The notes: generated by a model from the sequence alone, not told the origin. 54,232 nt of DNA from Prorocentrum cordatum (GCA_963575745.1 CAUYUJ010000257.1:62001-116232); one strand, 5' to 3'; counted from the first letter of the stretch, positions 14,801 through 23,800 are shown. A program made the numbers and translations.

Positions 14801-17800
14801 CCGGCGCTGCACGGCCCGCGGGAGGACGGGAGGCGCTGGGGGCTCCAGGGCTACCGGCAGAGGCTGGAGGGCCACCTGGAGGACTCGGGAGGAGGAAACC
14901 ATACCCAGACGTCCAACGTATTGGGAACGTCAGGGCGGATGTTTTTAGCCGTTTTCGGCCTCTGGGGGCCCTCGCCGGGCCTCGGGGCCGTCGAAGCACG
15001 ATCCTGCCTGAAAAACCGGCCCCCGGGAGGTGGTCCAGAGCTCCGGGGGACCCCGTGTTGAGGAAATCAAGACATCGGACGTTTGGGTGCTGATACCGCT
15101 GAGTGAGTGTCCTGGAGAGCCCTCGTTGCCACGGCTGGATTCTCCTGTGGTCGTCAGGCTGCGCTCCAGAAGGTCTGAGGAGTAGCGGTGCCAATATGTT
15201 TTCGATTACACGTACGTGACCTTTCGCTATCGCTAGAGTGACTTTCGGTGCTGGCCCTGGGGGGGTGGGGCCAGTTTTTCTTTTGGCGCGACCCCCTTGG
15301 GGCCAGCACCAAAGGTCACTCTTGCGAGCAACAACTTGTTCGCCCAGGACTCCCAGCAGTTTGCCGACGCAGAACTCTTCCGGCAGTCGACGAATCAACA
15401 GCGACACAGGCAGAAATGTTCGGAGGTCCGCTCAGATTTCTTGGATCGGCACTGGGCCCTCTTTTCCTGGCGCGCGTAGCGCGCCAGGGGCGTCGCCGGA
15501 GGCGCCGCCAGGGGTGCCAGCGCCGTCCCAAGAAACCCGCGCGGCCTACGATAGTTGTTGTTTGTGCAGTTGTTTGCTCTTCTAGGCAGGCCACGGTAGC
15601 GTTCCTGATTCACGTGCTGGTGCACACGCTGCTGCTTCTCTACGTCGTGCCCCTCTTCGGAAGGTCGGACAAGACGCCGTCGGCGCAGGTCCCTTACGAG
15701 ACGTGCTCCAGGCGGCTGGCGAGCTCCTTCTTCTCGACGAACCCCGTGCACTGCCTGCGCTCCAGGTACATTCAGTTGCGCTGCCGCGCACATCCGGCGC
15801 CGCGCGAAGGGGTGGGCGGGGGGGAAGCGGCCTGGGGCGACTGGTACTTTCTGTGGCCCGTTGGGGCTTTCTGTGGCCCGTTAGGGCTTTCTGTGGCCCA
15901 GGGCTCGTGGGTGATGGCCTTTCTGTGGCCCGTTGGGGCTTTCTGTGGCCTGGTGTTCGCGAGGCCTACTGGAAGAATAGCGGTATCCTGCTTCGGAAAC
16001 GTATGGGCTACCCAATTGAAAAACATTCATCCTGCTGGATTTCTGGGGGTTCGGAGGGGCAAACAGCATGATGGCGTGGAGCCCCGTATTGGACGCATTC
16101 TGACTTCGCCCAGAAGTCTGCAGAGGTCCCCAGAGGTTTTCGGAGGTCCGAGAGCAACCACAGACGTCCAACAACCTGCGTAGATTCTCCGATGCGTGGG
16201 TCTCGAGGCGGTGGACGTCATCGTCTTCGTCTTCGGAGTGAAGAGGGGCGTGGGGCCAAGGGGCTACTTGGTTTGCTCCCTCGGGGCCTACTTGGTTGGG
16301 CTGCTAGTACGGAGGGGCCGACCATCGATTTCGTCGTTGTCAGTCAGGGCCTGGCTCACCTCGGTAGCGACTTTCGGGCGCTGTATGGACCGCCCACTGC
16401 CCCCCAAGTTGCAGTGTCCATGGAGCTCAAGGAGCCCACGCTCAACGGGCCCACGCTCGGCGTGCCGTTGCACGCCCGCAGGGCGTGGAAATCTTTCCCT
16501 TCTGCCTTGCGAGGTGCGCCCGTCCGTGAGCCTGCGTGTCACGTGTGGAGCTGGCTTGCCTGCACCGCCGACGGCGTCCAGCTGGAGCATGCCTCGTGCC
16601 AGCGGCTCTACAGCCTGGAAGCTGAGCTGTGCAGCCGACTCGATATCGCTGGCGTTGGCCAGCGCGGCTCCTGCTGGCAGAGCCGAGGGGTCACGTCGCA
16701 AGCAGGTGCCGCTGGCAGTGCCGACGGAGCAGGCGGCCACGTCGGGCTTAGGGGCCCAGGGGCGTGCACGGAGGCCCCTCGACGTCGTCTCCTCCGGGCC
16801 CCGGGTGCCTGCAGGCTGGCGGCCTCTGCCTGCCGAGGCCGCCGGGGGGTCGGGGAGCCACGCCCGGGCCGCTGGAGCCCGTGGGCTCTCTCCCAGCCTG
16901 GGGCGTGCGCTCCGCAGGAGGCGGCGAGATCCAGCGGGCCCGACGGGTCCGCTCCTCCGCCGACCGGGGTCCACCCTGAGGAGGGTGGAGGCCCCTGGGG
17001 ATGTGGCCCGAGGTTCCCCTCCAGTTTTGGCGCTCTCCCCCGGGGAGTCGCTGGAGGGAACACCCGAGCTCCGCGCCTGCCTCGGGTGCAGCGGCTTTGG
17101 TGCGCTCTCGGTGTCGGCCTCGAGGTCATCATCTGGGGGCTTGGGTCCTGGCTCGGGCTCAGGTCCCCCGGTCACCCCTCCACTCGGCGCCGCTCGTGCT
17201 GCTGGGCGGCGTCGAGTTCGGGGTCGTCGGCGGCGACGGGGCGCTGCCGTTGCGCGCCAGGGGTTGCTGGGGGAGCTCGACCAACCGGATCTCTCGTCGC
17301 CCGCAGGGGTCCAGCCGATAGAGCGCGGCTTGCGCGAGCTGCTCGCCGCGGTGGAGGCTGGGGGTGAAGACCTGGCCATCTTGGCTTCGAACGTGCGCGA
17401 TGCGGCGCTCGACGCTTCGGCGTCGGCGGCGCCGGAGCAGCTGCGGGAGCGGCGTGGGTGGTGCCGGCGCTGTCATGCATCATGTCTGGCGGCCGATGCG
17501 TGCGCGGGCGTCCAGCCGCAGGTGCGCGGGCCCACCGCCCCCCGAGGGCTGGGCGCTGCAGGGCGACGCCGCTGTGCAGGCCATGCGCCAGGGCCGGATG
17601 CAGGGCCGGGGTGAAGCTAAGGAGAGCATCTCTCAGATTCAGAGTGCAGTTTCAGATCGGGACGTGCTCGAGAGGCCGACGGTCGAGCGCGTGCGTTACG
17701 TGTGCCGCTCCTTCGGGCACCAAGTGGGCCTCGGGGTGGACTGTGTCAACCCGCGCTCTTGCGGTCTCCTCGAGGATGACTTGCCGACTTGATGACGCCG

Positions 17801-20800: not shown

Positions 20801-23800
20801 TTGAGGGAGGTTGGCCGCGCCGCTCCACGGGCGACGGGAGGCCGCCTCAGGTCGGGTTTGTGGCGAGTCCCCGTCTGTCGTCTGTGCCTCGGCTCTGGGC
20901 CGAGCGGCAGGGGCGGTGTGGTGCCTGCCCTGCGTGTTGCCCACGGGGTGCGTCGAGCGAGGTGCCTGCTGACCCTCATCGGCGCATCTCAAATGATGTT
21001 TTGCCTTAGTGGTGTCGGCGTGGACGCCTTCTGCCGTCTTCGTACATTACAGTACCTGATGGTTTCTATCCTACCTTATAGTAGCGTGCAGTTTCCTACC
21101 ACATCTTACCTTATATGAATTAACCTTTTTTTCAGCCTAGCCTGTATTATCATATCATCGATTGCCTCATCTGGCCCTTTCTTACAACACCACATCTTGT
21201 ATTATCTTATGTATACACACTTTAACTTCACCTGGCACATACCATATGTTGTATAATATTCTCTTACCACATCTGAGCACACATTATACTACATGGCATC
21301 ATCTGTACATGACCGTAGATGTGTTTATCGCATAACTTGTTCTAGTCTAGTATAGGAACGGATCTTGCTCTGTCATGTAATATTGTACATGTGTTGCTGG
21401 GCTTATGTTGCCATATCATATTCTACATTCTCATACGTTGCCTGGTCCTATCTCATCATATGTTATCACGTCTTACCTACAGTATTTTTCATGCGTGCCG
21501 GTAGGATGGCCCATGCGTTTCGTTCGAGACGTCCTCGCCACTTATGATCTCGAAGCTTCGGATGGAGGCCGGGCGCTTTTCAACATGCGATTCTCGCCTT
21601 CGCTCCGCCCGCATCCGTTTTTCCCAGCCCGTCACGAGGATGCAGCGCGATACGTTTACTAAACTGGGCTCGCGCCGCTAGCCTGCAGCAGTTATGCTGA
21701 CGGAGGGCGGTGCGCTTTCAACATGGGCCTCTCACCTCAGCGCCGCGGGCGCTCGTCGTACAAGCTTCCAGCCGCTAGAAGGAGTGAGGGTGTTTGGGTT
21801 TTCGAGGCATGGTTCTCGCTTGCGCCTTCATAAGCTTTCACTGCCACACTCGTGAACACATGTATCGGCTGCTAGGATGGGGGCGGTTCCTTTTCATAAT
21901 GGGTCTATCGCTCGAGACTCGCTCATACTGACGCACCGCATGTGTACACCTGCTCAGCAATTGCACGGGCTGGGACGACTTTCTCAAATCATGGGGATCT
22001 CGATGGGCACTTCGTTGCACCTTATACTTTGCCAGAAGGCTTTTCAAAACGGGGCTCCCGCCTGAATGGCAGGCTCATGTGATGCTCGTCTTGCCAGGGG
22101 GACGCTTCTGGCAGTGAACGGGACGGTTTGTAGATGTTTCTGAGGAGGGGATTTGGGACGAGAGGCTGTCTTGCAGCATCGCTGACGCGTCCTAGCTTGG
22201 CCCTGGTTCCCCCCCTCCTCGTCCTCCTCCCCTCCTCCTGCTCCTCCTCCTCCGTTTTGGACGAGAATGCTGCCCACGACGACGATCGCGACGCTGGCGG
22301 CGACGCCAACACTGAGCATGAAGGGAACGGGTCCTGAGGAAACCGGGTCTCGGACGCTGGGGCCTTCCCCCGAGACCAGCGCTTTGAACCGAATCGTTTT
22401 TGAAGGTCCTGGTCGCCGTTGAGGGCCCGAGGGCCCGCAAACAGAGAAACACCTCAGGATCCCAAACAAATGAGCGGTACAGGCCCAAGCGTGATACTTT
22501 CCCTTGAGGCCAACGAGCGGTTGCGTACTCGCCACCTGCTTTACGATCTGCTGAGCTAGAACCCAAATGCTTCGGGCATGCAGCAAAACACCATCATCAT
22601 CCCCATCCACTGCACCTTTAATGTGCATAACGAGCATCGACACGAGCGAAGACGCGCTGTTGCGCCAGCTCAGGGCCCATTTCCTTCACGGCGACATTGC
22701 GGCGGCGATGGCGGCCGGGAGGCCAGCGGCATTGAGACGACGACGCCGACGACGCCGACGACGACGACAACGACCTCGGCGCTGCGCAGCCGCGGCAGCG
22801 GATCTACGGCCACTCCCCGCCGTGCGACTTCCGCGTGAGGGGCAAGGATCAGCATTGTTTCAACGATCCCCATCCCCATCCCCATCCCGAGCCCCACCCA
22901 TTTTGCCACCCCAGGTTGGGGATACACCCCTCGGAGCCCGAAGGGAACAGCCTACATCCCCGTCTGGGCGGGTAAATCGGCCAGTCTGGGCCCGGGCCAC
23001 GCCGTGGGGGATGGGGGTCGGATATACGACACTCCGAGGAGCACCTGCTGAGGCCGAACCCGGCGATAGGGTGCTACTTCCAGGACGCGACCCGTCTCCC
23101 GGGCCCTCCTCCGCAGGCCTCCGGCGGGCTACCCCTGCGGGTGCGATCGCCGCTAGGGTGTCGGACACCTCCGCGGGGGTCCATTTGGCTGCAGACATCC
23201 TGCGAAGTCTGAGCCCCAGCTGGCGATTCAGGATGTCTGACCTGCAGGGTCGGCGGTTCAAAGATGGGGCCCTGATGTTATCGAGAACTGGATAACCCTA
23301 ATACCACGATGAAGACGTGGCCTCACTTAGATCCCCGTCGTCGCATTGGGGATAATACATCTGGGCGGTTTGGTCTGATACAGCTGCAGAGAGACCCCCT
23401 ATTCGTAATGTTTTTGGCCCTCCTAACTTAGGTCCCCTCCCAAAGGGTCACGGGTACTTGTATTGCTTATCGCGATGGATGGGGACCTAAGGATAGGAAG
23501 GGGTACAAGGGTGGATTTACATCGGTTGGGGCACCTCGTCCTCTGGACTTTCTTCCTCGGGACCCCATCTCTGAACCGCCGAGGGGGGTAGGTTCCACGT
23601 CCGAGCGCCTATGGTTGTAGTCCTTCGAAGAAGAAACACACTGGCACCGCACTGTTAATGCAATGCGTGCGTTACTTGGCTATTTCCCAACCATCCTGTG
23701 GTGTTGGGTCCTTGTTTTGAAGTGTAACAGCGTCCCGCGTTCCTCACTCCTTCCTTCCTCCTCCCCGTCCTCCTCCCTCATCATGATCATCAGCAGCACC

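Follow-up and report, generated by a model that had tools for sequence, protein, structure and literature searches.

Core dinoflagellates are held to use only introns with GT, GC or GA donors and AG acceptors, and genome annotation assumes so (PMC10666404, PMC11453091). In the genome paper of the red-tide alga Prorocentrum cordatum, intron calling was restricted to GT, GC or GA donors with AG acceptors, and introner elements amount to 2.4% of introns, counted within this donor set (Dougan et al. 2023, PMC10666404). Introner-like elements with GH..AG ends and AGGH duplications are described from Symbiodinium and Polarella (Roy et al., bioRxiv 10.1101/2020.10.14.339549). In Amoebophrya (Syndiniales), analysed for introns of 40-1000 bp, >60% of introns are non-canonical, with no common end letters and no detectable U1 small nuclear RNA; its elements carry inverted repeats of 8-20 nucleotides (nt) that join the ends into a hairpin and bring the exon edges together, together with direct repeats of 3-5 nt (Farhat et al. 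2021, PMC7789003). Nonconventional introns of Euglena follow the code 5'-N3CDG-/-CH'GN5-6, with R on the far side of the splice border (Nomura et al. 2025, PMC12501133), and the tunicate Fritillaria borealis has numerous introns derived from miniature inverted-repeat transposable elements (MITEs), mostly AG-AC or AG-AT, whose removal is credited to the U2 spliceosome (PMC11282704). Here we describe an intron at 15770-22801 of a 54,232-nt stretch of P. cordatum DNA (GCA_963575745.1, CAUYUJ010000257.1:62001-116232; hereafter the window). It lies in a conserved membrane-protein gene, is removed precisely although no G[T/C/A]..AG cut is available, and shares its end motifs with two other introns of the same gene.

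RNA runs were picked by exons 1-5 of the gene, and four runs from four studies were compared, as assembled contigs, with positions 4900-23300 of the window. One contig in each of the four runs carries the joint 15769>22802, which skips 7032 nt, slides by 2 nt and, as placed, leaves intron ends that read AT..GG. The same contigs carry all 13 RNA-supported joints, and they continue past this one through a 43-nt exon (22802-22844) on to 23037. In run X1 the eight listed exon pieces, 2187 nt in all, match the window with 0 differences, and X5, on record as a polyA RNA-Seq library, is taken as another strain because it has 10 listed base differences. The protein reading is equally continuous: the window gives ...CLRSRYI-YGHSPPCDF... 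across the joint (hyphen) and homologues give ...CLRSSYV-YGHSPPCDF..., gap-free, with the pattern CLRS-x-[YF]-V-Y-x-H-x-PPC in P0002 to P0005, again with no gap. Two of these, the transcript-derived P0002 (909 amino acids, aa) and P0003 (1230 aa), are placed by tblastn on the plus strand at about 4990-32659 in some 16 blocks, with 90% and 85% identity, respectively, to the query block. We conclude with high confidence that 15770-22801 is a real intron, cut out to the base, and the central features are as follows.

15585-15769, plus strand: upstream exon (12th from 4990), ending ...CLRSRY(I), the last 0-2 bases at the joint being ambiguous; contig pieces in 4/4 runs with 0 differences, and tblastn with P0002 and P0003

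15770-22801, plus strand: non-canonical intron, 7032 nt; joint 15769>22802 in four runs and enumeration of permitted shifts

22802-22844, plus strand: downstream exon, 43 nt, reading (I)YGHSPPCDFRVRGK; joints 15769>22802 and 22844>23037, with a side of 43 each, in 4/4 runs, and homology

An original prediction, made from the sequence alone, had set the same limits for this intron, in agreement with the joint within its 2-nt slide, and had argued for precise removal rather than a gene-killing insertion. Contigs of four runs from four studies do join the exons at the predicted place and the homologues are gap-free; of the two outcomes it had named as fatal, neither appeared, as the exons are joined and no G[T/C/A]..AG route exists. 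Its numbering as intron 11 was wrong: by RNA this is the 12th intron from 4990, a 36-nt exon at 15346-15381 having been missed. This micro-exon is present in 4/4 runs and was overlooked by tblastn. Three other joints (5017>22739, 13083>20743 and 20039>22751) were rejected as repeat artefacts, their sides being 20-21 letters long and lying in GAC/GCC repeats, and intron bins lacking RNA cover were left out of the evidence.

Every cut that the sequence allows was then listed for each of the 13 RNA-supported joints. A G[T/C/A]..AG cut is available in ten introns (GA-AG in six, GT-AG in two and GC-AG in two) and in none of the remaining three, 7444-8924, 9707-10887 and 15770-22801. For the last, the permitted cuts are AT..GG, TT..GA and TC..AT. 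The share of odd-ended introns is 3/13, or 3/15 when two more downstream introns known from homology only, at about 23084-30766 (GA..AG) and about 30812-32566 (GC..AG), are counted. A canonical in-frame route for 15770-22801 was sought in the sequence from the donor CCAG-GT (cut at 15765/15766, 4 nt upstream) to an AG near 22788 or 22798; it leads to a frameshift and a stop, and it is not seen in the RNA contigs. The same four runs support both sister introns.

7444-8924, plus strand: sister non-canonical intron, 1481 nt, AT..GG or TC..GA; joint 7443>8925 in four runs, the pieces contiguous in the records

9707-10887, plus strand: sister non-canonical intron, 1181 nt, TC..GG or CC..GT; joint 9706>10888 in four runs, the arithmetic of the records leaving no extra letters

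All three introns obey a common rule, in which an exonic A is followed across the cut by TYCA(G/C)NTGC, and GGYRGCGGR stands before the downstream exon.

15771-15779, plus strand: 5' end motif TTCAGTTGC, in common with TCCAGCTGC at 9707 and TCCACGTGC at 7445, each preceded by an exonic A

22794-22802, plus strand: 3' end motif GGCAGCGGA, in common with GGTGGCGGA (ending at 8925) and GGTGGCGGG (ending at 10887)

The original prediction had it that these ends differ by transitions only, which is correct for GGCAGCGGA against both of its counterparts and for TTCAGTTGC against TCCAGCTGC; the comparison with TCCACGTGC involves two transversions. Since the motif was derived from these same three introns, the fair test is a pairwise one, in which the first 10 and last 9 bases are compared and each intron is allowed a 2-nt slide. 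Identities among the three are 16/19, 14/19 and 14/19; with the same shift freedom, 2/20000 random pairs reach 16 and 41/20000 reach 14, and the best of 30 comparisons between odd-ended and canonical introns is 11/19. The interiors of the three show no similarity beyond simple repeats, and ends that stay alike while the interiors are unrelated speak for a constraint acting on the ends. Within this gene, a small class of introns with end motifs of its own is well supported.

The nearest known systems are the introner elements of Amoebophrya and the nonconventional introns of Euglena, and the introns described here fully fit the definition of neither. As in Amoebophrya, they belong to the dinoflagellate lineage, lack GT-AG, have a splice site that is variable relative to the hairpin, and affect gene prediction (PMC7789003). 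The termini of 15770-22801 are non-canonical, and a 10-nt perfect complement, set in by 9 nt at the 5' end and by 1 nt at the 3' end, falls within the 8-20 nt of the Amoebophrya inverted repeats. The border direct repeat, by contrast, is 2 nt (AT) in 15770-22801 and 1 nt in each sister, short of 3-5 nt, and no repeated body family is seen, only the ends being alike among the three. Unlike those of Amoebophrya, moreover, these introns are a minority (3/13) in a core dinoflagellate whose other introns in the gene are G[TCA]..AG, share a common end motif and include one member of 7 kb. With Euglena they share non-GT-AG borders, a short end helix at a set distance that would define the sites, a border ambiguity of 1-3 nt, a suspected MITE-like origin and the presence of conventional introns alongside (PMC12501133). 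Euglena is of an unrelated lineage (Euglenozoa), and its code fits in part at the 5' side only: ATT-CAG matches N3-CDG in 15770-22801 at the leftmost cut, whereas ATC-CAC and TCC-AGC in the sisters do not, and CH'G followed by 5-6 nt is absent from the 3' side of 15770-22801, where the last nine intron bases are CGGCAGCGG and the nearest CTG (22782-22784) lies 17 nt from the end. The introns of Fritillaria borealis are likewise transposon-like, odd-ended and precisely removed, but they are numerous, have other termini and belong to an animal lineage (PMC11282704). The GA-AG introns of the present gene match the introner-like pattern of Roy et al. (AGGA repeats and end complements), and the three odd-ended introns do not; annotated introner elements likewise carry inverted repeats at the intron ends but take their splice sites from a target duplication, whereas these three have neither such sites nor such a duplication. 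In the literature outside subscription-only papers (which include the final Current Biology version of Roy et al.), we found no report of such introns in core dinoflagellates or in any dinoflagellate other than Amoebophrya.

The two ends of 15770-22801 are complementary to each other. The 10-nt arms named by the original prediction are exact reverse complements, and they lie, as it had said, in a register different from that of the other two introns.

15779-15788, plus strand: 5' arm CGCTGCCGCG of the 10-bp end helix; sequence and duplex fold

22791-22800, plus strand: 3' arm CGCGGCAGCG of the 10-bp end helix; sequence and duplex fold

15795-15802, plus strand: 5' arm of an inner helix, 8 bp including one G-U pair, with its partner at 22777-22784; duplex fold

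22777-22784, plus strand: 3' arm of the inner helix; duplex fold

Perfect complements of at least 10 nt between 35-nt end windows occur in 111/20000 random window pairs and 53/5000 GC-matched pairs (about 0.6-1%). When the 40-nt ends are folded as a duplex, the 10-bp and 8-bp helices together reach -40.6 kcal/mol (z = -2.6), a value matched by 0/200 shuffles. The 3' motif is also approximately the 5' motif inverted, except for one surplus A, and in small two-strand folds each intron comes to about -15 kcal/mol. For those at 9707 and 15771, the folded helix starts at the first and last intron base, carries the A as a bulge and extends through both junctions into exon-exon pairs. From the termini inward, the three introns have 10, 8 and 3 stacked pairs, and 2% of random cases reach 8. 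With the changes C>T and A>G within the 3' motif, Watson-Crick pairs become G-U pairs, and this holds for the sense strand only. In 15770-22801 the same 3' strand can instead pair perfectly with another motif copy lying 9 nt deeper in the intron, which is the register difference noted above.

These features suggest how the cut sites could be specified. The first intron bases would pair with the last (UYC with GGR), one A would be bulged, and GYUGC(C) would then pair with GGYRGC, so that both cut sites would come to lie at the foot of one short helix. Either this helix or the motifs themselves may mark the place of the cut, and the interior would be free to grow, as the lengths of 1.2, 1.5 and 7.0 kb may reflect. 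In 15770-22801 the 3' strand could alternatively form the perfect 10-bp helix with the inner motif copy, with the 8-bp inner helix behind it. The reading we prefer, with a probability of roughly 0.7, is that 15770-22801 is a genuine intron removed exactly without G[T/C/A]..AG and a member of a small class that has its own end rule and whose ends probably pair. We infer that pairing defines the sites, and the machinery may be a tolerant spliceosome or another one; with three cases, the end helix is a model rather than a demonstration.

Several observations weigh against this reading. The class is known from only three introns of one gene, those from which the motif was derived, and the motif is not enriched in the window (5' pattern at 8 sites against 5.0 expected, 3' pattern at 17 against 13.9). 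The claim of the original prediction that complementary ends are kept draws on three introns, of which only 15770-22801 has a strong end duplex; the 40-nt end duplexes of the sisters are not above shuffles (z = -0.2 for 7444-8924 and -0.45 for 9707-10887), and their Watson-Crick end complements extend over just 6 and 5 nt. In the common register the intron at 7444 has no more than 3 terminal pairs, and it prefers another register. Complementary ends are also not specific to the class, as the GA-AG introns 6153-6340 and 22845-23036 have 10-nt complements too and one of the ten canonical introns reaches 8 terminal pairs. All of the RNA evidence consists of assembled contigs, which are blind to efficiency, intermediates and minor isoforms, and the sequence between the joint sides is not reported for 15769>22802, so that the claim of no extra letters there rests on the homologues and the 2-nt overlap.

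A broader version of the preferred reading can be put forward only tentatively, and we hold it somewhat less probable than not. P. cordatum would then have a second splicing rule beside G[TCA]..AG, with the code UYCAG..UGC after an exonic A and GGYRGCGGR before the downstream exon, in which a bulged-A terminal helix sets the cuts around an interior of 1 to 7 kb. The rule would apply genome-wide, would be invisible to annotation (leaving truncated or padded models), might not depend on the standard spliceosome, and would parallel that of Euglena.

Among the alternatives, the one that survives best, and which we nonetheless consider unlikely, is that the ordinary dinoflagellate spliceosome tolerates odd termini, the like ends being inherited from a single family of transposons with short inverted termini and pairing playing no role in the choice of sites. 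Precedent exists in Fritillaria and Amoebophrya, where diverse non-canonical, transposon-derived introns are credited to an adapted spliceosome (PMC11282704, PMC7789003). In the sequence itself the ends are near-inverse (TCC(A)GCTGCC against the inverse of GGCAGCGGA), in the manner of the terminal inverted repeats of a DNA transposon or MITE, and the end duplexes of two of the three introns are at chance level. A common transposon ancestry accords poorly, however, with three introns that lack interior similarity and with the absence of a target-site duplication beyond 1-2 ambiguous bases, and ends kept at 14-16/19 around unrelated interiors argue for selection on the ends as signals. It also counts against this alternative that every other intron in the gene retains G[TCA]..AG.

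Far less probable is that the window holds a dead copy with three insertions and that an uninterrupted paralogue, allele or retrocopy is the source of the transcripts. Multi-copy genes are common in dinoflagellates and recycling of complementary DNA is known, both of which speak for such a source, as does the truncation of the public gene model at this place. The eight listed exon pieces (2187 nt) nevertheless match the X1 contig exactly, the contigs trace the ten canonical introns of this very locus as well, and all exons are open and conserved. A dead copy would further need three independent exon insertions with like ends, unrelated interiors of 1.2-7 kb and no target duplication. An assembly artefact, in which the 7 kb would be a chimeric join inside an exon, is hardly credible, as a mosaic interior of unlike parts and simple repeats might suggest one, but the ends share motifs with two other RNA-verified introns and the flanks meet to the base, unlike in a chance misjoin.

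Other known routes of intron removal were compared with the permitted cuts of 15770-22801 and set aside. A U12-type AT-AC intron, which has AT..AC (or GT..AG) termini with extended 5' and branch-site motifs, does not fit, as the 3' end is GG, GA or AT and never AC. In the bulge-helix-bulge geometry of tRNA-type introns the cuts lie in 3-nt bulges on opposite strands with a 4-bp helix between them; this required helix, examined by hand, fails at the first pair in 3/3 permitted cuts. Loops of the IRE1 type, creation of GU or AG by adenosine-to-inosine editing, and nested (two-step) canonical splicing cannot yield the observed joint. For all four, bulge-helix-bulge included, the reason for rejection is that every permitted cut leaves A or T as the first base of the intron.

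The interior of 15770-22801 is a mosaic of unlike parts that includes several triplet repeats.

15847-15950, plus strand: tandem array with a 20-nt unit, 5.6 copies; repeat search

16000-20800, no strand assigned: GC-rich block, 64-69% GC, called a long interspersed nuclear element (LINE) in the original prediction; composition, with no codon periodicity

20990-21500, no strand assigned: AT-rich piece, 35-49% GC; composition

The original prediction had placed a heavily decayed LINE of 4.6 kb here. The GC-rich block at about 16.0-20.8 kb is present, and no reverse transcriptase or endonuclease was confirmed in it. Pfam matched 0/80 open reading frames (ORFs) of at least 60 aa at E<=0.01 and 0/6 pieces at E<=10, and no [YFLQ]xDD motif occurs in the six frames. 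A PDB search with three ORFs gave nothing relevant, one ORF compared with 1.84 billion representatives returned one repeat artefact and three fragments of 61-68 aa, and two word-index searches came back empty. Low-depth contig pieces of runs X15 and X19 over 16.6-20.9 kb, which continue into unlike sequence, may be GC-rich chance matches and were not counted in favour of a repeat family. Nothing of note was found by tblastn of the window's retroelement-like minus-strand ORFs (44-3716 and 49291-54183) against the intron; the repeat search detected no bounds inside it resembling long terminal repeats or terminal inverted repeats, and Rfam on 7300-23100 gave sub-threshold microRNA-like hairpins only, none of them in 15770-22801. 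The only lead, a weak one, comes from the ORF at 16072-17364, for which a language model gave scores of 0.84-0.88 to Exo_endo_phos(_2) clusters, below the 0.9 mark; a motif read by eye as the end of an endonuclease agrees with it. The LINE negatives are themselves weak, because Pfam also misses a YFDD-bearing, retroelement-like ORF at 49.3-50.7 kb of the window. The argument that the intron is old was built on the decayed LINE and lacks support, as no such element was confirmed.

The public gene model is wrong at the odd-ended introns. P0001, an NCBI 'unnamed protein product' of P. cordatum, matches the gene's first coding block (5226-5840) at 100% identity. At the first odd-ended intron, P0001 takes a GT..AG route that adds six residues, PRAVAD, inside a conserved stretch; at the second it jumps from ...AEAYAPA to CYFSTMQV, skipping exons, and it ends early inside intron 9 (area 7444-8924 and 9489-11019). 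These routes are absent from the RNA contigs of the four runs. Three introns of one well-expressed gene break the G[TCA]..AG rule yet are removed exactly. If the class proves to be genome-wide, part of the 'dark', fragmentary dinoflagellate proteome would be an annotation artefact, and structure-defined splicing of the Euglena and Amoebophrya kind would enter a free-living, bloom-forming lineage with a short, testable sequence code.

The host gene encodes a conserved dinoflagellate multi-pass membrane protein without any Pfam family, and its exons are all open and conserved relative to homologues. Pfam returned 0 families for P0002 to P0004 and a PDB sequence search with P0002 no match, and a reading of the protein as an OSCA/TMEM63-like channel has no support. 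A search with P0002 for homologous DNA among metagenome contigs gave 12 pattern matches and 0 relatives. The genome-annotated Symbiodiniaceae homologues P0006, P0011 and P0012 are uninformative on conservation of the three junctions, their oddities lying away from them. At two positions elsewhere in the protein they contain sizeable foreign insertions (MFS, macro and ankyrin parts), which suggests mis-joined models there too.

Other introns of the gene have repeat features of their own. The six GA-AG introns (5812-6086, 6153-6340, 6569-6818, 7133-7295, 14880-15345 and 22845-23036) are bordered on both sides by direct repeats, mostly AGGA and at most 10 nt long. An exon ends in 18 nt (23069-23086) that are repeated at 16/18 positions at 30752-30769, just before the next exon 7.7 kb downstream, so that the GA..AG intron between them has a border repeat of 10 nt. 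A self-complementary element of about 125 nt occurs in three introns at 78-82% identity (14385-14511, 15427-15544 in inverted orientation, and 25416-25521), and the 203-nt GC-AG intron 15382-15584 consists largely of one such copy. In 4/4 runs the summed contig depth is by far the highest in the bin 14110-14723, where loose ends are numerous, as would be seen with an expressed dispersed repeat.

Elsewhere in the window, the minus-strand ORFs at 49291-54183 and 44-3716 are long, have a strong codon bias and a retroelement-like look, with YFDD at 49.3-50.7 kb and no Pfam match. Very long triplet and simple repeats occupy 28700-29900 and 23700-24100, including about 1 kb of AGC type, with 38% GC and an extreme GC skew.

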